From the IMG/VR virus record IMGVR_UViG_2541047691_000020, positions 1 through 5,712 of that record: DNA of 5,712 bases; one strand, written 5' to 3'. The notes below the pieces were generated by a model. That model saw only the letters and a list, made by a program, of their open reading frames with translations, ran no database searches and was not told the origin of the DNA. This DNA comes from a virus (taxonomy: Duplodnaviria; Heunggongvirae; Uroviricota; Caudoviricetes). A program made the translations under genes and the position numbers. Each line of letters opens with the position of its first letter. The stretch's first letter is position 1. This document shows positions 1 to 5,712 of the stretch, one piece after another.

Positions 1-537
1 ATGATGCTTACCCTAGACGAGATAGGTCAATCTGTACGTAACAATATCCAGTTGATTATTGATCATGTCGGCTTACCTCTTGCTGTTGGTCCGCTCAGTG
101 ATGATGATTACAAGATTCTGTGTGGTGGCTATGGTGAGCTTGAATGGGACTATGCGTTAAGCACCTATGGCAACTCCAGAGAAAAGTATGAGTTCTGCAT
201 AAAACTTGTTCAGCAAGGTCGGGTTCAGGGAATACCATCAGGAGCAGCAATTTGTGTTTATGGGGTTGAAGAAAACATCTTTCGTATCCATATGATCGAA
301 AGGTTTTCTAGAGAAGATGAATCTCACCCATTGAAAGGGCGCATGGTTTTACTCACTCTTATGAGTGCTTTTATATTTTGTAAAGCTGTTGAATGTAAAG
401 TTGTCCACATTGTAGAGCCAGTACCAGAACTGGTGCAGTATTACGAGTCTTTTGGTTTCCGCATGGAACAGTGCGGTTATGTGATGTCTGCAGTCATTGA
501 TGAGCTGCAGGATATCTTTCTTAAATTTGCTCAGTAG
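1..537 (+). CDS. Hypothetical protein with GNAT-fold-like (N-acyltransferase superfamily) motifs; N-terminus coincides with the window edge, so the true start is unverified
   Basis: 178-codon ORF from ATGATG at 1-6 to TAG at 535-537. The C-terminal half shows a GNAT-like pattern read by eye: 'HPLKGRMVLLTLMSAF' (P-loop-like turn then helix), 'KVVHIV' (strand), 'PELVQYYESFGFR' (helix ending in GF). It is on the opposite strand to the prophage operon and looks AT-richer (roughly 37-42% GC sampled by eye). No homology search was possible. Confidence 0.55.
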   Translation: MMLTLDEIGQSVRNNIQLIIDHVGLPLAVGPLSDDDYKILCGGYGELEWDYALSTYGNSREKYEFCIKLVQQGRVQGIPSGAAICVYGVEENIFRIHMIERFSREDESHPLKGRMVLLTLMSAFIFCKAVECKVVHIVEPVPELVQYYESFGFRMEQCGYVMSAVIDELQDIFLKFAQ

Positions 538-733: not shown

Positions 734-907
734 ATGAAAGATCAAAAAGCAACCAAGCCACAGGTTAAGTTCGACACAATGAAAGCATTCGCAGGTATGG
801 GTGCTGCTGTTGAAGTTCTGATGAAGGCTGCTCCTAATGCGTTCACTCACGCTACTGTCTCTGGTAAAGAGCAGCAGGGTAAGCTTCGTCGTCGCAAAGC
901 AGCATGA
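734..907 (+). CDS. Small hypothetical protein, 57 aa (MKDQKATKPQVKFDTMKAFAGMGAAVEVLMKAAPNAFTHATVSGKEQQGKLRRRKAA); below the ORF-track length cut-off
   Basis: ATG at 734 is preceded by GGGAG (723-727) with a 6-nt spacer. The frame is open to TGA at 905-907 and is followed 20 nt later by a strong intrinsic terminator. It has an amphipathic central segment and a basic C-terminal tail (KLRRRK). No family recognised. Confidence 0.5.
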   Translation: MKDQKATKPQVKFDTMKAFAGMGAAVEVLMKAAPNAFTHATVSGKEQQGKLRRRKAA

Positions 908-926: not shown

Positions 927-956
927 AAAACCCGCCTTTAGGCGGGTTTTTTCTTT
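927..956. terminator. Rho-independent terminator at the convergence point of the plus-strand cassette and the minus-strand prophage operon
   Basis: Perfect 10-bp stem aaaacccgcc (927-936) / ggcgggtttt (941-950) with loop ttta. On the plus strand it is followed by ttcttt, giving a U-rich run of about 10. On the minus strand the same hairpin is followed by only the 4 U of the stem, so it is weaker there. The stop codon of the minus-strand gene (955-957) sits in the T-tract. Confidence 0.8.
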
Positions 957-1236
957 AGTGATGTTCTTTGCCCTTCTGTTTGCCTGTTCTGACCTGTTCC
1001 CACTCGATACGTCCTTCTTCTCGTCTTTTGTCTATGTATTCCGCAAGATCCTGAATATTGATGCAACGTTTTGCTTTTTGTGATGTGCCGATGCGATATG
1101 TTGGAACGGGCAACTTACAAGCGTTTGCTTTTGCTTCTGCCGTGGCTGGACTCATGCCAAAGTACTTTTGGCTAACTGCTGAGAGTTCAATGTTAGGGGT
1201 ATTGAATTCAGCCATCAGTAAAAACAAGGTGTTCAT
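955..1236 (-). CDS. PrtN / excisionase-like small DNA-binding protein (putative recombination directionality factor or regulator), 93 aa from the ATG at 1236
   Basis: The track ORF 955..1263 begins with GTG at 1263. The in-frame ATG at 1236 is preceded by GGAG with a 6-nt spacer, so it is preferred. The sequence 'LLMAEFNTPNIELSAVSQKYFGMSPATAEAKANACKLPVPTYRIGTSQ' resembles the PrtN/phage excisionase-like HTH family as far as I recall. It is the last gene of the leftward operon, directly before the terminator. Confidence 0.6.
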   Translation of the reverse strand: MNTLFLLMAEFNTPNIELSAVSQKYFGMSPATAEAKANACKLPVPTYRIGTSQKAKRCINIQDLAEYIDKRREEGRIEWEQVRTGKQKGKEHH

Positions 1237-1272
1237 AATTTTCTCCATCAAAACCGGCTGCACCCGGGAAAA

Positions 1273-1845
1273 TCATAATTCTGTGCTGGTGGCAGGAATT
1301 AATTTCTGCCAGATAGCGGAAACATATTTTGCCTGATGACGAGCATCAGCCAGGGCGTTGTGCCGTTCGCCATCGAAAGGCATGTCCATTTTGGGGTCGA
1401 ATCCGATGGAACGCCCAAGCGTAACGATCGTGCGTACATCGTGGTCATTCCAGTATGCCCACGGGCAGATTTGTCCTGCTCGCTCATAAGCTCCACGTAA
1501 AATTACGTTGTCGAAGGTGGCCCCGTTACCCCAGACTTTTAAATATTTCGTATTGGCTGCGTGCCGGTTAATGAAATGATTTAGTTCTGAGAGAGCATCG
1601 CTGATCGACAAAGTATCATCAATACAGATTGCAGCTCGTGCTTCAGGGCTTTGTTTCAACCACCACAGGATGGTATCGCCGTCAGGTGTAGCTCCTTGCC
1701 CCATAGCACTTTCCAGGCTAACAACCGTATAGAATTCTTGTCCGATGTCTCCGGTTTCTGGAGTGAAGAACACCGCGCCAATGGAAACGATCGGTGCATC
1801 CTTATTTTTCCCCATCGTCTCAAGGTCGATCATTAAGTTGTTCAT
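1273..1845 (-). CDS. DEDDh-type (DnaQ-like) 3'-5' exonuclease, phage accessory type; 190 aa from the ATG at 1845
   Basis: Exo I motif 'MIDLETMG', Exo II-like 'WGNGATFD', Exo III 'HNALADARHQAKY' (H-x4-D). The track start at 1848 is GTG; the adjacent ATG (1843-1845) has AGGAGG 7 nt upstream. The start overlaps the upstream stop as TGATG. Confidence 0.85.
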   Translation of the reverse strand: MNNLMIDLETMGKNKDAPIVSIGAVFFTPETGDIGQEFYTVVSLESAMGQGATPDGDTILWWLKQSPEARAAICIDDTLSISDALSELNHFINRHAANTKYLKVWGNGATFDNVILRGAYERAGQICPWAYWNDHDVRTIVTLGRSIGFDPKMDMPFDGERHNALADARHQAKYVSAIWQKLIPATSTEL

Positions 1846-2417
1846 CACTTCACCTCCTGCGGTGGTTCCGGTAATTTCATCCAGTGGGTTGCCTGCTCAA
1901 TACCATTACCCGGCTTAATCGTTGCATCTCCGCGCCGAAAGGTGCTTCCGGTATAGCGTGCGGAGCATATTAGCGGTTCAACCAGAGAGCTATCGAAATT
2001 CACCGAAATAAGCACGTTCTGATTCTTTTCCGGCATTCGCTCACTACAGCTTATCCAACTATCCGGAATTACCGGAGAGTTGCCCGATAGCGCGTTCTGC
2101 AGTCGCTCCAGTTTCACGTATTCCTGAACCCTGTTTCCGTCGCATGCCCGAAGCCATTGCGCAGCCTTTTGCGCATCAGTATGAAAGGCACAAGTGCGTC
2201 CGTCATCAAATTGCATTTCGTAAAGGTCAGCAACCTGTTCAAAGTGCGTTTGTGGCAAGTTGTAAGTTTGGCTTACAGGTTCTGCTTCCAGCGATGCCAG
2301 AGCAATTCGTGCCAGTTCTTCCGCTTCTTCTGCTGGCAGTACAACGTTGCTACCAGGTCCGTATGTTTCGCGCCACTGCCTGATTGTCAGCAGTCGCTCT
2401 TTGGTAATAGTGGTCAT
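1845..2417 (-). CDS. Phage protein with C-terminal DUF551-like domain (Ead/Ea22-region family)
   Basis: 190-aa ORF with an ATG start and AAGGA about 9 nt upstream. The C-terminal 'WISCSERMPE...WMKLPEPP' matches the DUF551 pattern (W-I-S-x-x-x-R-L/M-P-E ... W-x-x-L-P-x-P) from memory. The N-terminal half is acidic and helical. Confidence 0.75.
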   Translation of the reverse strand: MTTITKERLLTIRQWRETYGPGSNVVLPAEEAEELARIALASLEAEPVSQTYNLPQTHFEQVADLYEMQFDDGRTCAFHTDAQKAAQWLRACDGNRVQEYVKLERLQNALSGNSPVIPDSWISCSERMPEKNQNVLISVNFDSSLVEPLICSARYTGSTFRRGDATIKPGNGIEQATHWMKLPEPPQEVK

Positions 2418-2427
2418 GTGTTAGTCC

Positions 2428-2691
2428 TTATCCTGCTGTACTTTCAACTGATGAGGGGAATAAAATCTTTTCATCAAATCCGGCATTCATATCATGAACA
2501 GCAACACACCAATCCATTGACGAACGATTATCAAGAGCCTCCATGATTTCATCCATGCGGCGCAGGTCATACAGGTAAATGCTTTTATCGCCAATGGTGT
2601 AAAAACCAATTTTTTTCGGTGATGGGCAGCGATCAAGAACGTCCTGTAATTCGCTCAACCATGCTTGTTCTTTTTTTGTCAAAGTTGCCAT
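2428..2691 (-). CDS. Hypothetical phage protein, 87 aa (MATLTKKEQAWLSELQDVLDRCPSPKKIGFYTIGDKSIYLYDLRRMDEIMEALDNRSSMDWCVAVHDMNAGFDEKILFPSSVESTAG)
   Basis: The ORF-track start at 2745 would overlap the upstream gene by 53 nt. The ATG at 2691 has AAGGAG 7 nt upstream and starts 1 nt after the upstream stop (TGA-T-ATG). Confidence 0.7.
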   Translation of the reverse strand: MATLTKKEQAWLSELQDVLDRCPSPKKIGFYTIGDKSIYLYDLRRMDEIMEALDNRSSMDWCVAVHDMNAGFDEKILFPSSVESTAG

Positions 2692-2692
2692 A

Positions 2693-3229
2693 TCACTCTC
2701 CTTTGATGCGAATGTCAGCGACGCGTAATGCGTGTTCCAGGTCAATCAGGTAAAGCCAACTGCCATTTTCTTTAGGTATCATGACATGTCGCTCATCTGC
2801 ATTTATCGGGTGTCCATATCGAAGGTCGTAGCGAGTCGGTAATTGAACTTCCCGCGCTTCCAGTTCAGCAATACGCTTGCACCCATCAGAGATAACTCCC
2901 TCGTAATACTCGCGCTGCTCGTTGAGTTTTGATTTTGCTGCTTCAAGCTCAACGAGCAGCTTCCCAACCGTAAGCGCAATATCCTCGTTCTCCTGGTCAC
3001 GGCGTTTGATGTATTGCTGGTTTCTTTCCCGTTCATCCAGCAGTGCCAGCACGGTTTCTGGTCCGTTCAGAAATTTGAAGGCGTTGAGCGCATCAATATC
3101 CACACCGTAATCTTTAAGTTCCTGTTCACTTAACAAATCATCATCAGCTGGCAACATTAACAGGCGTTCCATTGCCGGAATTGCACGTTCTGCCGCCTCA
3201 CGCAGTGCCTGATAGTCAATATTGCTCAT
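2693..3229 (-). CDS. Ea22-like coiled-coil protein (lambdoid 'ea' region)
   Basis: 178 aa with an ATG start. The central region is rich in heptad-like E/K/L/R runs ('ENEDIALTVGKLLVELEAAKSKLNEQREYYEGV...IAELEAREVQL'). The N-terminal 'MSNIDYQALREAAE' resembles Ea22-like prophage proteins from memory. The ORF is flanked by tight stop-start junctions. Confidence 0.7.
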   Translation of the reverse strand: MSNIDYQALREAAERAIPAMERLLMLPADDDLLSEQELKDYGVDIDALNAFKFLNGPETVLALLDERERNQQYIKRRDQENEDIALTVGKLLVELEAAKSKLNEQREYYEGVISDGCKRIAELEAREVQLPTRYDLRYGHPINADERHVMIPKENGSWLYLIDLEHALRVADIRIKGE

Positions 3230-3230
3230 G

Positions 3231-3530
3231 TCACATCACCCTGAATCCGTTGCATTTACGTAAGAAATCGCAGATATAGCTCTTCATTTTTTCATGCCAA
3301 TCCCGATCATTCCCATTGCACCAACCATCAGGTGGAGTCCAGTTTTCTATCAGAGCAGCCATTTTCTTTGCTTTCGCCGGAGTAGCTGTTGCGGTATCGC
3401 AGTAATGACGAGTGTCGATCAACGTATCCATACCATCGATATCAAGTACGCAAAACCATGTGTGATTCGGCATTTCAACAGATGGTATTTGTTGCCCACG
3501 TCGACGTTTATCAATAAGACATACAGTCAC
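3231..3530 (-). CDS. Small Cys/His-containing hypothetical phage protein, 99 aa, GTG start (positional equivalent of yfdT)
   Basis: GTG at 3528-3530 is preceded by AAGGAGG with a 6-nt spacer and overlaps the upstream stop as GTGA. Length and position after the yfdR-like gene are close to K-12 YfdT (about 101 aa as I recall), but the sequence identity is unverified. Confidence 0.65.
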   Translation of the reverse strand: MTVCLIDKRRRGQQIPSVEMPNHTWFCVLDIDGMDTLIDTRHYCDTATATPAKAKKMAALIENWTPPDGWCNGNDRDWHEKMKSYICDFLRKCNGFRVM

Positions 3531-3943
3531 TGGTTGCCTCCTTTACGAAGCTGGGCGGCGAACTCGTCGCATACGTGCGTTAAAGAGCAAATCTGGATAG
3601 CAGGATGCTCGCGCAACAATTCAACACCCTGCGCACGTACTTCAGCCAGGAAAGCGTCGGTGGCTGACATATTTCCTGTTGCCTTCATGGCCTCCAAAAT
3701 AACCAGAACGCCATCTCGCCCAACCAACACGGAGATAATCTCAGTGTTGTCGCCAACAACCTCACAGAATGCCTGAACAGCTTTACGAGCCAGCTCATTC
3801 TCCGCCGCCAGCGCCGCGCACTTGGCCTCCGCTTCAGCAAATTTACGCACCAGATACTCAGCATTTGTTTCATTCACTTTCAGATCTCGTGGTACACATT
3901 TCCCGCGAAGAAACCCTTCCATTTCGAAAACATTCATGCGCAT
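3527..3943 (-). CDS. Hypothetical phage protein, 138 aa (positional equivalent of yfdS)
   Basis: ATG at 3941-3943 has GGAG 8 nt upstream; a second in-frame ATG at 3935-3937 forms an ATGA overlap with the stop of the HD-domain gene. The protein is Ala/Glu-rich and helical. The length differs from K-12 YfdS (about 120 aa as I recall), so no symbol is given. Confidence 0.65.
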   Translation of the reverse strand: MRMNVFEMEGFLRGKCVPRDLKVNETNAEYLVRKFAEAEAKCAALAAENELARKAVQAFCEVVGDNTEIISVLVGRDGVLVILEAMKATGNMSATDAFLAEVRAQGVELLREHPAIQICSLTHVCDEFAAQLRKGGNQ

Positions 3944-4470
3944 TTGCGTAACTCCGATAACTCGTTAAAACGTTCCATAAACATCCCGTAGGCATGGCTC
4001 GGAGCCAGTGGAATCACGTTGAACATCTCTGTTGCCGGGATGCCTTCCAGTACAGGCCAGAAAGAGCCATCATCAAGCCCGAGATCGCGACGTTCGGTTG
4101 CCAGCATGATGAGATCGGCATATTTCACGGGTGTACTCATAACTGGTGGTAACCCGTATTTCTCACGGATTACGGCGTCTATTTTTTCTTCCATCCGTTT
4201 ATAGTCAGGAAGAAGGCGTTTCAGTGGCGCCGGGATGTCCTGGCAATACGCTTCTGTTGCATCATGCATTAACGCTTCAAAAGCAAATTCCTGCGGTACC
4301 AGTTGGCTGCAAAGCACCGCATGTTGGGCGACGCTGTAGAAATGTGAAAGATGTCCTGCAAAGCGACAGATATTTGAAAGAGAAACCGCGATATCGTTAA
4401 TAACGATGTCGTCTTTATTTATCCTGTCATAATAAAAATGCTTCCCGGAAAAAGTTTTAATAAATGACAT
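3934..4470 (-). CDS. yfdR: HD-domain phosphohydrolase, YfdR-like (5'-nucleotidase-type HD protein of KplE1/CPS-53-type prophages), 178 aa
   Basis: HD signature: 'SVAQHAVLCSQL' (first His), 'EALMHDATEAYCQD' (HD dyad plus downstream Asp). The track start (4497) is GTG; the ATG at 4468-4470 has GGAG 7 nt upstream and gives 178 aa, which matches the length I recall for E. coli K-12 YfdR. A YfdQ-like 274-aa gene is immediately upstream. Confidence 0.8.
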   Translation of the reverse strand: MSFIKTFSGKHFYYDRINKDDIVINDIAVSLSNICRFAGHLSHFYSVAQHAVLCSQLVPQEFAFEALMHDATEAYCQDIPAPLKRLLPDYKRMEEKIDAVIREKYGLPPVMSTPVKYADLIMLATERRDLGLDDGSFWPVLEGIPATEMFNVIPLAPSHAYGMFMERFNELSELRKCA

Positions 4471-4563
4471 TTTGTTCTCCACGTATATGCGCTGCACCGC
4501 GCTGAATTCTGGTAAAAGGAAGCCCTCACCATCTGGCGATTATTGAGTCAATTACGTTTCCAT

Positions 4564-4585
4564 AAATGCCCCCGCAGGGGCATTT
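4564..4585. other. Perfect GC-rich stem-loop (9-bp stem aaatgcccc/ggggcattt, loop cgca) in the 100-nt gap between the yfdQ-like and yfdR-like genes
   Basis: Checked base by base. On the minus-strand transcript it is followed by only UUU then AUGG, so it is not a canonical intrinsic terminator. Confidence 0.5.
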
Positions 4586-4597
4586 GCAGTAATGAAA

Positions 4598-5422
4598 TCA
4601 GGCGGTGAAAGTACCAATAAAGGTTTCTACTTTGCTGTCTTTGAATTTCTCAACAAGCAGATCACGAAATTCGTTAGCCATTTCTTCCTGCACCGCTTCC
4701 AGCTGAATAATGCGCAGAACCAGTACAGGACGATCACCAGTGATAATGCTGAGGCGTAATTTAAACGGACGTTCTTTCAGGCCTTCAAACGGAACGCATT
4801 TAAACTCAAATGCTACTGGCATAATGTCTTTGGTTTTCGCTTCGACAGACTCCATCAAAGAGCGTTTGCCGCTGAAGTCATTATCTTCAAAATCAGCGGT
4901 CTGGTTTGCTTCAATCGTGATTTTACGGACTGCCGCAGCCGCTTTTGTTGCCTTAATAGCGTCACCATTAGCATCAAAGCCCACAAGATAGTCGGCCCAG
5001 TCTTCAATCCATTCTGCCAGTGACTTCTGGGAGTTACGCTCGCCATTAACAGACAGCAGGGCAGAGAACGGTGCTGTCTTTTTCAGTTTGAGAGTGGCGG
5101 TGTTATCTGCGTGACCTGGTTCATCAATAGTACCCAGGTTAAGCACACTGATGGCTCGCATATTATCGGCATCGATAAAGCAGCGGGTGCCTTCATCTGC
5201 AAGATCTTTAGAATAACGGGTAAAGTCATCGATGCTGGCAGTGGAAAGCGCACCACGGAAACGGAAGCGATTTAAATTAAATTTTTCCAGATCATGAATG
5301 CGGAAATTCTCAGGCAATGCCACAGCATCGGCACCAATCTTACTGATAATTTCATTAACACCCTGAGCAGAAATAAGGGCATGGATTTGATTAATTGCGG
5401 TTGCGTCTAAGTTCTGAGACAT
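4598..5422 (-). CDS. yfdQ: YfdQ-like uncharacterised prophage protein, 274 aa
   Basis: ATG at 5420-5422 with GAGGA about 7 nt upstream. The 274-aa length and the immediate downstream 178-aa HD-domain gene match the yfdQ-yfdR arrangement of E. coli K-12 CPS-53 as I recall it. No catalytic motif recognised. Confidence 0.75.
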
Positions 5423-5487
5423 AATAAGTCCTCACTATATTAAGATATTCAGTGATGAGATAAATAATCAGTTAATTAAGAACGATA

Positions 5488-5712
5488 TTAATGACCTGCT
5501 GCGCGGAGTTTTCCGTCAGGTTCACCGGCAAGAGTCAGTAATTGTCCCTGGTCTTCCTGCAGAATAGTCAGGCGACCACCGCGATTGACATACATCGGCG
5601 TTTCGGTGGTGTCTTCTTCGGAAATTTTCCCGCGGTTAGTCGGGCGAACATATGAGAGTTTGTGTTTGATTTTCACACGGTTCTCATCAAATGGTTCGAT
5701 TTCCAGGTTGAG
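5488..5712 (-). CDS. 3' end of an upstream phage CDS that continues beyond the right window edge (partial)
   Basis: The reading frame is open from the window edge (5712) to TAA at 5488-5490. The ORF-track start at 5676 is GTG with no convincing SD, and the internal ATG at 5595 also lacks an SD. A 65-nt AT-rich gap separates it from the yfdQ-like start. Confidence 0.45.
   Translation of the reverse strand, partial: LNLEIEPFDENRVKIKHKLSYVRPTNRGKISEEDTTETPMYVNRGGRLTILQEDQGQLLTLAGEPDGKLRAAGH

Follow-up and report, generated by a model that had tools for sequence, protein, structure and literature searches.

The yfdP-yfdQ-yfdR early block of a lambda-like Escherichia coli prophage and its possible part in dampening host replication initiation

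Genes of the CPS-53 (KplE1) prophage remnant of Escherichia coli K-12 are known to interfere with chromosome replication: multicopy yfdQ and yfdR together with either yfdS or yfdT inhibit initiation at oriC, and the YfdR protein binds DnaA (Noguchi & Katayama 2016, PMC4776307). The first-pass annotation of a viral sequence from IMG/VR (the window, a stretch of 5,712 nucleotides) described this literature accurately, and on the basis of gene lengths and order it read positions 3231 to 5422 as an intact yfdQ-yfdR-yfdS-yfdT cluster with a function in host takeover or superinfection. This locus raises the questions of whether the replication-inhibiting gene set is in fact present, which of its genes form a conserved unit, and what that unit might do in the phage cycle. 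An ORF check recovered four close-packed minus-strand ORFs in 3231 to 5422, as previously annotated, and these belong to the following array:

5488..5712, minus strand: 3' part of yfdP (full length 120 aa, continuing past the window end)
4598..5422, minus strand: yfdQ, 274 aa, DUF2303 / YfdQ family
4564..4585, minus strand: GC-rich hairpin of 9 bp, AAAUGCCCC-UGCG-GGGGCAUUU, in the 127-nt yfdQ-yfdR spacer
3934..4470, minus strand: yfdR, 178 aa from ATG, HD-domain protein named 5'-deoxynucleotidase by PGAP/PHROG
3527..3943, minus strand: gene 3, 138 aa, a chimera with the N-terminal residues of YfdS
3808, no strand: mosaic junction at which the DNA stops matching K-12 CPS-53 (blastn)
3231..3530, minus strand: gene 4, 99 aa, DUF7739 / phrog_1239
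955..3229, minus strand: rest of the same early-left operon (Pfam and PHROG, PGAP of the identical PMV-1 locus), with the five genes that follow, each from Pfam/PHROG/PGAP
3229-2693, minus strand: Ea22-like gene
2691-2428, minus strand: 87-aa gene
2417-1845, minus strand: DUF551 protein, 190 aa
1848-1273, minus strand: DEDDh 3'-5' exonuclease
1263-955, minus strand: PrtN/excisionase-like gene

In ExPEC/APEC strains, PMV-1 for example, the prophage adjoins zur. The identical PMV-1 locus runs from an XRE/cI-like repressor through yfdP (named 'protein YfdP' by PGAP), yfdQ and yfdR to the exonuclease gene, the PrtN/excisionase-like gene and host zur. All genes between the repressor and the excisionase-like gene at the prophage end lie on the same strand, which identifies the array as a lambdoid early-left operon. 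In a lambda-like prophage, the segment makes up the promoter-proximal portion of this operon, and separable units are joined in it as a mosaic. Downstream, the Ea22-like, DUF551 and exonuclease genes named in the first-pass annotation are indeed present by Pfam/PHROG. Translational coupling, which had been proposed for the operon, stood for yfdR and gene 3 (overlap of 10 nt), for gene 3 and gene 4 (overlap of 4 nt, GTGA) and for gene 4 and the Ea22-like gene (gap of 1 nt), but not for yfdQ and yfdR, whose 127-nt spacer carries the hairpin and whose stop and start codons do not overlap; the length of this spacer is the same in K-12. The gap between yfdP and yfdQ is 65 nt, and their start and stop codons neither overlap nor abut. 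The hairpin was seen in both MFE and centroid folds and was not called by a consensus terminator scan; it is possibly a weak terminator or an RNA-processing element. When the 720-nt leader that separates the repressor gene from yfdP was scanned by consensus, no convincing promoter for the operon emerged, and a search for hidden RNA genes returned no tRNAs and two sub-threshold Rfam matches, both outside the segment.

The match to the K-12 cluster holds for its first two genes. The window's YfdQ is identical to K-12 YfdQ at 270 of 274 residues (99%) and matches PF10065 (DUF2303) over residues 7-272 of 274 with 306.9 bits and an E value of 1.4e-91, against a gathering cut-off of 26.6 bits; it also matches phrog_210. 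YfdR is identical to its K-12 counterpart (b2361) at 175 of 178 residues (98%), and its gene lies directly downstream of yfdQ as in K-12, which marks it as the orthologue. This protein matches phrog_318 (E 4e-111) and the structure PDB 2gz4 (E 4.5e-14). Its HD residues, predicted earlier to be conserved, are so: H50, H69, D70, E73, D78 and D119 are each conserved in at least 98% of 94 homologues of 49-100% identity, and they align to the HD segments of YfbR and 2gz4, placing YfdR in the HD phosphohydrolase superfamily. YfdR stays just below the gathering cut-off of Pfam YfbR-like (PF12917; 24.2 bits against 25.9) and below the cut-off of HD_3 (16.8 bits against 22.5); it is a sister group of the curated YfbR family and does not belong to it. 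Comparison with K-12 gives a dN/dS of 0.07 (yfdQ) and 0.03 (yfdR); with open genes throughout, a compact early layout and such purifying selection, the operon can be regarded as intact, as the first-pass annotation had held.

Genes 3 and 4, on the other hand, are not YfdS and YfdT. Residues 1-35 of the gene 3 product are identical to YfdS, and all similarity is gone after about residue 46. The protein joins these 35-46 N-terminal YfdS residues through a coiled-coil-like linker to a C-terminal domain common to some Ea22-like families, in line with its PHROG matches (phrog_583 over 1-46, phrog_492 and phrog_368 over 29/34-138); it has no Pfam match and the DUF551 domain is absent from it. Gene 4 matches PF24881 (DUF7739) at E 3.9e-21 and phrog_1239 at E 3.7e-55, and was rejected as a YfdT candidate (E 0.32, no similarity); blastp and tblastn searches of the window with YfdT as the query likewise gave no match. 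The near-equal lengths of gene 3 and YfdS (138 and 120 aa) and of gene 4 and YfdT (99 and 101 aa) are a coincidence. Homology to CPS-53 DNA consists of a single HSP over window positions 3808-5712 (96.1% in blastn against MG1655 2466000-2482000) that ends inside gene 3, and because it stops at about codon 46 of this third gene, neither the DUF551 part of YfdS nor YfdT is found here. Both halves of YfdS do occur in the window on separate proteins, the N-terminus in gene 3 and DUF551 in the 190-aa protein at 2417-1845. The window thus holds intact yfdQ and yfdR; it lacks yfdT and any yfdS that combines the N-terminal region with DUF551. Since genes 3 and 4 are other genes, the minimal replication-inhibiting set of yfdQ, yfdR and yfdS or yfdT is not reproduced in this prophage. 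The yfdS and yfdT genes of K-12 are local mosaic cargo and do not belong to a conserved module of four genes, and it is therefore unsafe to carry the published "yfdQRST" phenotype over to other prophages.

The distribution of the genes locates the conserved unit elsewhere. The first-pass annotation had paired the HD enzyme with its large partner YfdQ, but it is yfdP that invariably accompanies yfdQ, lying directly upstream in 79/79 species-level loci and in 79/79 IMG/VR loci, a linkage that reaches as far as YfdQ proteins of 39% identity (in Marinobacter and Photobacterium). In Xanthomonas phage MET23-P3 a 38%-identical YfdP homologue likewise precedes the YfdQ homologue, and the pair sits beside recombinase, exonuclease and SSB genes. 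By contrast, yfdR follows yfdQ in 51 of 77 species-level loci and is missing beside it in the other 26; it never follows a yfdQ of less than 50% identity (0 of 8 distant loci), although the adjacency is constant in close E. coli relatives (78/78). Where yfdR is missing, the slot downstream of yfdQ holds unrelated genes (SSB, DEDD exonucleases, repeat proteins). The conserved evolutionary unit is thus yfdP-yfdQ, two obligately linked genes. Two apparent natural YfdP-YfdQ fusions, P0011 and P0074, proved to be singleton in-frame deletion products. Nor is the arrangement unusual: of 5426 complete E. coli genomes, 2454 (45%) have yfdQ and yfdR in one contiguous block. The block is also carried by the viable phages mEp460, SfII, SfIV and ST64B and by Stx phages, and mEp460 aligns to 69% of the window with 97.7% identity. 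The early-left yfdP-yfdQ-yfdR cluster of lambdoid phages has been described as fairly common (PMC12315714). The segment is an ordinary, already described example of this well-known block in lambda-like E. coli prophages, and with the genes annotated by name and the cluster discussed in the literature, the window adds little of its own.

What the block does during the phage cycle can be argued in several ways. The account that we favour, tentatively and with a confidence just short of even, is that YfdR acts early on DnaA, alongside YfdQ and a small third protein, and thereby dampens initiation at oriC. Upon prophage induction or infection the operon would be transcribed early; YfdR would then occupy DnaA domain I around Phe46, competing with DiaA and DnaB, and together with YfdQ and the third protein it would lower host initiation to the advantage of phage replication, while its putative phosphatase activity could act on the dNMP pool. 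This account assumes that the DnaA mechanism is at work in the phage cycle and that YfdS or YfdT can be replaced by some other product of the same operon; the small genes downstream, translationally coupled to yfdR, are exchangeable. We favour it because the proteins are 98-99% identical to those of K-12, for which a multicopy phenotype is published, and because the same block is found in viable phages; further reasons are the early-operon position in PMV-1, the start/stop overlaps from yfdR on, the conserved HD residues, the low dN/dS and the presence of both YfdS halves on different proteins of the window. It is weakened, in turn, by features of the K-12 work and of the locus. The K-12 phenotype is seen with multicopy plasmids only, deletion is without effect, the authors themselves allow that the phenotype may be an artefact, and pull-downs gave no strong affinity of YfdQ, YfdS or YfdT for YfdR or DnaA (PMC4776307). 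Intact YfdS and YfdT are lacking here, yfdR is absent beside yfdQ in a third of the species-level loci, and the leader scan gave no convincing promoter. Homologues of YfdR also occur in phages of Bacillus, Caulobacter and Rhizobium; as an E. coli-specific contact with DnaA domain I is unlikely in such phages, the ancestral role of YfdR is probably enzymatic.

In a reading centred on the enzyme, YfdR would mainly be a dNMP phosphatase made early by the phage to alter the deoxynucleotide pool and possibly to starve nucleotide-based host immunity; DnaA binding would then be a mere consequence of overexpression, and yfdQ no more than a neighbour. We consider this reading somewhat unlikely. Homologues of YfdR occur in 337 phage records, with many lytic and jumbo phages among them, and in phages of Bacillus, Caulobacter and Rhizobium, groups outside the top YfdQ organism tally. 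Conservation of the catalytic residues and the dN/dS of yfdR agree with the enzymatic reading, as does the name 5'-deoxynucleotidase given by PGAP and PHROG, although the activity is putative here, based on that naming and on the citation of Zimmerman 2008 in PMC4776307. A precedent exists in T5 Dmp, a dNMP phosphatase proven to act as an anti-Kongming factor through removal of dAMP (bioRxiv 10.1101/2024.12.20.629578). T5, however, is neither among the 60 tblastn matches listed for YfdR nor in the top organism tallies, and the likeness is kept as one of analogy only. Degradation of host DNA occurs in T5 infection and is not known from lambdoid phages, nor is its breakdown to dNMPs, and a deoxynucleotide kinase was not seen in the examined stretch of the PMV-1 prophage. 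YfdR's affinities for nucleotides are moreover given as far below those of YfbR, and its function as elusive, in a passage of the K-12 study that draws on earlier work (PMC4776307 citing Zimmerman 2008).

The invariant gene pair suggests another possibility, which we also rate as rather less likely than not: yfdP and yfdQ alone could be the functional module, a two-protein early device built around a large YfdQ oligomer and serving in the metabolism of phage DNA, in protecting DNA or in taking over the host, with yfdR and the downstream genes as independent accessory cargo that shares no function. Its linkage across distant species, the unrelated genes that fill the yfdR slot and the company that the pair keeps argue for it; besides the recombination genes of MET23-P3, the DUF2303 gene gp10 of phage JC1 lies close to RecT and YqaJ genes. 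The JC1 protein was found to be virion-associated by mass spectrometry (PMC9144972), and K-12 yfdQ deletion mutants show a weak sensitivity to MMS and to H2O2 according to work cited within PMC4776307. A homologue of YfdQ is present as 36 chains in PDB 9o7m. This entry was considered as a virion map, which would have suited the JC1 finding, and rejected as such: the major capsid protein of the near-identical Xanthomonas phage MET23-P3 and 15 of its structural proteins, concatenated, match other phage structures and never 9o7m, and YfdP homologues likewise give no match to it. A homo-oligomer is for these reasons the likelier reading of 9o7m, and YfdQ probably forms a large one. The code was not found mentioned in the literature; the structure is solved and apparently unpublished, and it may soon clarify the yfdP-yfdQ pair. 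Against an independent pair stand the K-12 phenotype, which needs yfdQ along with yfdR and for which yfdP is dispensable (PMC4776307), and the adjacency of yfdQ and yfdR, above random both in close relatives and across species. A Genome Research survey also argues that hidden recombination proteins are unlikely for these genes, and YfdQ has no informative structural relative, its fold and family matches giving no biochemical lead. The bolder form of the proposal, that yfdP-yfdQ is a new kind of machine acting early in the phage cycle, perhaps a large oligomer which would handle or shield phage DNA or disable a host system, with YfdR an optional add-on of enterobacterial phages, draws on the invariant linkage, the front-of-operon position, the lack of an informative relative for YfdQ and the 36-chain homologue; we regard it as unlikely.

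Far less probable is a role of the prophage genes in anti-phage defence or superinfection exclusion, with YfdQ as sensor or partner and YfdR as an HD nuclease-like effector. The idea goes back to a general analogy with nucleotide-targeting defence modules in the first-pass annotation, and it finds an echo in the observation that production of CPS-53 YfdQ or YfdM altered the production of another phage in K-12 (bioRxiv 10.1101/413146). The defence models of PADLOC-DB 2.0 match none of YfdP, YfdQ, YfdR, gene 3 and gene 4 (E <= 0.01). By the lambda paradigm, genes of a lytic early-left operon such as these would normally be repressed in a lysogen. The pairing of YfdQ with YfdR is also facultative, and YfdR is a small single-domain homologue of dNMP phosphatases and not an HD effector of the nuclease type.

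Among known systems, K-12 CPS-53 (yfdP-yfdQ-yfdR-yfdS-yfdT) is the closest: the order, spacing and strand of yfdP, yfdQ and yfdR are equal and the DNA is 96% identical over 3808-5712, but CPS-53 is a remnant, whereas here the genes belong to a largely complete prophage with DUF7739, Ea22-like, DUF551, exonuclease and excisionase-like genes. From the lambdoid early-left clusters of ST64B (gp35-37), LLS (gp37-39), SfV/SfII/SfIV and mEp460 the locus differs only in its downstream mosaic cargo. At the level of the protein, YfdR aligns with YfbR and Agrobacterium Atu1052 (PDB 2gz4) over the metal-binding motif H...HD...D and over the HDAxE...D segment, yet its similarity to E. coli YfbR is confined to about 40 residues, and YfdR, in K-12, additionally binds DnaA. 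The deoxyribonucleotide 5'-monophosphatase Dmp of T5, which is expressed very early, has the same stated activity and a PHROG-style annotation like that of YfdR, with no sequence relationship found among the matches listed. Finally, the K-12 authors compare YfdR with lambda P, a DnaA-binding early phage protein that reduces initiation in the host (PMC4776307); the two are not homologous, P being a helicase loader that binds DnaA domain III and YfdR an HD hydrolase that binds domain I.

The minus strand of the window reads as one long array of genes, and the segment under study (3231-5422) comprises four of them, in transcription order:

Gene 1 (yfdQ), 5422-4598, minus strand, ORF of 274 aa
Gene 2 (yfdR), 4470-3934, minus strand, 178 aa counted from the ATG used in K-12
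Gene 3, 3943-3527, minus strand, ORF of 138 aa
Gene 4, 3530-3231, minus strand, ORF of 99 aa

An alternative GTG start at 4497 would lengthen gene 2 by 9 residues. The first-pass annotation took these ORFs for the yfdQ-yfdR-yfdS-yfdT cluster of CPS-53, a cryptic prophage of E. coli K-12, and for the first two genes it was right: gene 1, a full-length DUF2303 protein (PF10065, 306.9 bits), is identical to K-12 YfdQ at 270 of 274 residues, and gene 2 to K-12 YfdR at 175 of 178. It was wrong about yfdS and yfdT. Gene 3 resembles K-12 YfdS at the N-terminus only (identity is complete across residues 1-35, and past residue ~46 the resemblance is gone); in K-12 YfdS this N-terminus precedes a DUF551 domain, whereas in gene 3 it precedes a region that PHROG ties to the C-terminal part of certain Ea22-like families (phrog_492, phrog_368). 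Gene 4 belongs to DUF7739 (phrog_1239), and sequence comparison revealed no relationship to K-12 YfdT. Window 3808-5712 matches CPS-53 DNA in one 1908-bp alignment (96.1% identity), and because this homology stops within gene 3, at 3808, the agreement in lengths and order with yfdS and yfdT is coincidental.

All 5712 nt of the window recur at 100% identity in the E. coli PMV-1 chromosome and 4 further complete genomes, and a sixth is essentially identical. In PMV-1, the window sits at the left end of a lambda-like prophage whose insertion adjoins zur, and PGAP names genes 1-4 "YfdQ family protein", "yfdR: 5'-deoxynucleotidase", "hypothetical protein" and "DUF7739 domain-containing protein". 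Upstream come the remainder of yfdP, then a leader of ~720 nt and a cI-like repressor; 3' of gene 4, Pfam and PHROG identify in order an Ea22-like gene, an 87-aa gene, a DUF551 protein, a DEDDh 3'-5' exonuclease and a PrtN/excisionase-like gene, the Ea22-like, DUF551 and exonuclease genes sharing the operon as had been proposed. In lambdoid phages, the early-left operon occupies this position. The translational coupling claimed for the operon holds for yfdR/gene 3 (10-nt overlap), gene 3/gene 4 (GTGA overlap) and gene 4/Ea22-like (1-nt gap), but not for yfdQ/yfdR, between which a 127-nt spacer with a 9-bp GC hairpin (4564-4585, minus strand) intervenes. The corresponding spacer ranges from 15 to 143 nt across species, and that between yfdP and yfdQ is 65 nt. 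Barring antitermination, the hairpin might set yfdP-yfdQ expression apart from expression of yfdR and the genes after it. The PMV-1 prophage locus carries no recombination module (Beta, Erf, RecT, Sak4) and thus joins LLS and ST64B in the "no Rec module" group (PMC12315714). The segment is an ordinary prophage stretch, already described.

Several other features of this prophage deserve mention. The Ea22-like gene (2693-3229, minus strand) is called a truncated pseudogene by PGAP in PMV-1 (prophage locus L001, 19628-19999), yet its 178-aa ORF is open; the C-terminal third of its product is unlike typical Ea22 proteins, and gene 3 has the C-terminal domain of a different Ea22-like family (phrog_368), which suggests domain shuffling via the coiled-coil region. 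At window 1-537 (plus strand), a 178-aa ORF of low GC (~41%) finds a match in phrog_4350 and none in Pfam, NCBIfam or PADLOC. It is flanked by host zur and the excisionase-like gene, integrase being absent from that prophage end, and may be a cargo or moron gene. A strong 11-bp hairpin at 926-951 with A- and T-runs on either side (GAAAACCCGCC-TTTA-GGCGGGTTTTT) separates a 57-aa ORF (734-907, plus strand) from the convergent PrtN/excisionase-like gene (955-1263, minus strand) and looks like a bidirectional terminator. Beyond the window, directly past the Q antiterminator, lies an AB5-toxin pair (a subtilase-family B subunit and a scabin-related ADP-ribosyltransferase), and the major capsid gene is frameshifted (L001 30650-31824 and 38678-39894 for the two observations), which may leave the PMV-1 prophage defective.

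For each gene of the window, homologues were located in 160 loci with a YfdQ homologue, 80 of them species-level genomic loci and 80 from IMG/VR. Where flanks sufficed, yfdP lies immediately upstream of yfdQ in 79 of 79 loci in each set, including the most distant (39-46% identity: Marinobacter, Photobacterium, Kistimonas), and the pair recurs in Xanthomonas phage MET23-P3. Immediately downstream, yfdR is present in 78/78 near-identical E. coli prophages, in 51 of 77 loci across species and in none of the 8 where YfdQ is <50% identical; where it is missing, its place is taken by unrelated genes, among them those for SSB, DEDD exonucleases and repeat proteins. A total of 337 phage records contain YfdR homologues, and many of these are Bacillus, Caulobacter and Rhizobium phages, groups absent from the top organism tally for YfdQ. 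DUF7739 was found in 0 of the 160 yfdQ loci. Among 5426 complete E. coli genomes, the yfdQ-yfdR block is contiguous in 2454, the non-K-12 part (gene 3 C-terminus plus gene 4) in 57 and the whole four-gene arrangement in 32. By these counts, the "HD enzyme plus large partner" envisaged earlier is not the module; instead, yfdP-yfdQ forms the core, yfdR is often added to it, and the small cargo genes are freely swapped. In five species (L096, L097, L098, L112, L136), a tandem-repeat protein (GTGITSLPEGLSVGGxLxL, 175-369 aa) intervenes between yfdQ and yfdR. Three database proteins (P0011, P0074, P0161) combine DUF2303 with PF27127, a recent Pfam family that is apparently the YfdP family; by sequence, P0011 and P0074 are singletons in which an in-frame deletion has fused yfdP to yfdQ, and such fusions are probably decay products in cryptic copies.

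YfdR aligns with the HD segment of YfbR and with PDB 2gz4, and H50, H69, D70, E73, D78 and D119 each show conservation of 98% or more among 94 distinct homologues (49-100% identical) drawn from the 160 loci. Its score against the Pfam YfbR-like family (24.2) falls slightly under the cut-off of 25.9, so that by sequence it is related to the curated family without belonging to it. The dN/dS values against the K-12 copies, 0.07 for yfdQ and 0.03 for yfdR, indicate that these genes are kept by selection and, as first proposed, are not decaying. What the first-pass annotation said of published work on the K-12 cluster also proved accurate: multicopy yfdQ and yfdR with either yfdS or yfdT suppresses hda-185 and inhibits oriC initiation, yfdP being dispensable; deletion of the cluster has no effect, and the authors allow for the overexpression phenotype being an artefact (Noguchi & Katayama, PMC4776307).

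For YfdP and YfdQ, fold searches with AF2 models gave no informative structural neighbours. The sole database lead is PDB 9o7m, whose 36 chains, called "YfdQ Protein", match YfdQ at E 1.6e-44; it was not among the returns of the fold search against PDB, and a literature search found no mention of it. Its sequence shares 98.8% identity with a protein of MET23-P3, a CP2-like phage (L004 27837-28661), whose gene again lies 3' of a yfdP homologue, in an early operon beside recombinase, exonuclease and SSB genes. A virion map was considered and rejected: no MET23-P3 capsid, portal or tail protein is in the entry, so that a homo-oligomer is the probable reading. In Burkholderia phage JC1, a DUF2303 protein is reported to be virion-associated (PMC9144972), and K-12 yfdQ mutants show a weak sensitivity towards both MMS and H2O2, as cited in PMC4776307. 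These leads fix no mechanism.

Gene identities and operon layout are observed directly; DnaA binding and initiation inhibition are established solely for K-12 proteins under overexpression. The best-supported reading, held with low to moderate confidence, is that the segment dampens host initiation through YfdR acting on DnaA, with an added dNMP activity. Expressed early after prophage induction, YfdR, aided by YfdQ and a small third protein, would occupy DnaA domain I and so dampen initiation, while its conserved active site would act on dNMPs; the part of YfdS or YfdT might be played by gene 3, by gene 4 or by the DUF551 protein encoded further downstream. A defence system, as the first-pass annotation had also entertained, finds no support, PADLOC models matching no segment protein. 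Two alternatives to DnaA-directed dampening remain. The yfdP-yfdQ pair may be an independent machine and the other genes unrelated cargo, in line with its adjacency at 79 of 79 loci in each set. Or YfdR may be purely enzymatic: although tblastn of YfdR found no homology to T5 Dmp among the matches listed, a pool-editing or counter-defence role would be analogous to that of T5 Dmp against Kongming.
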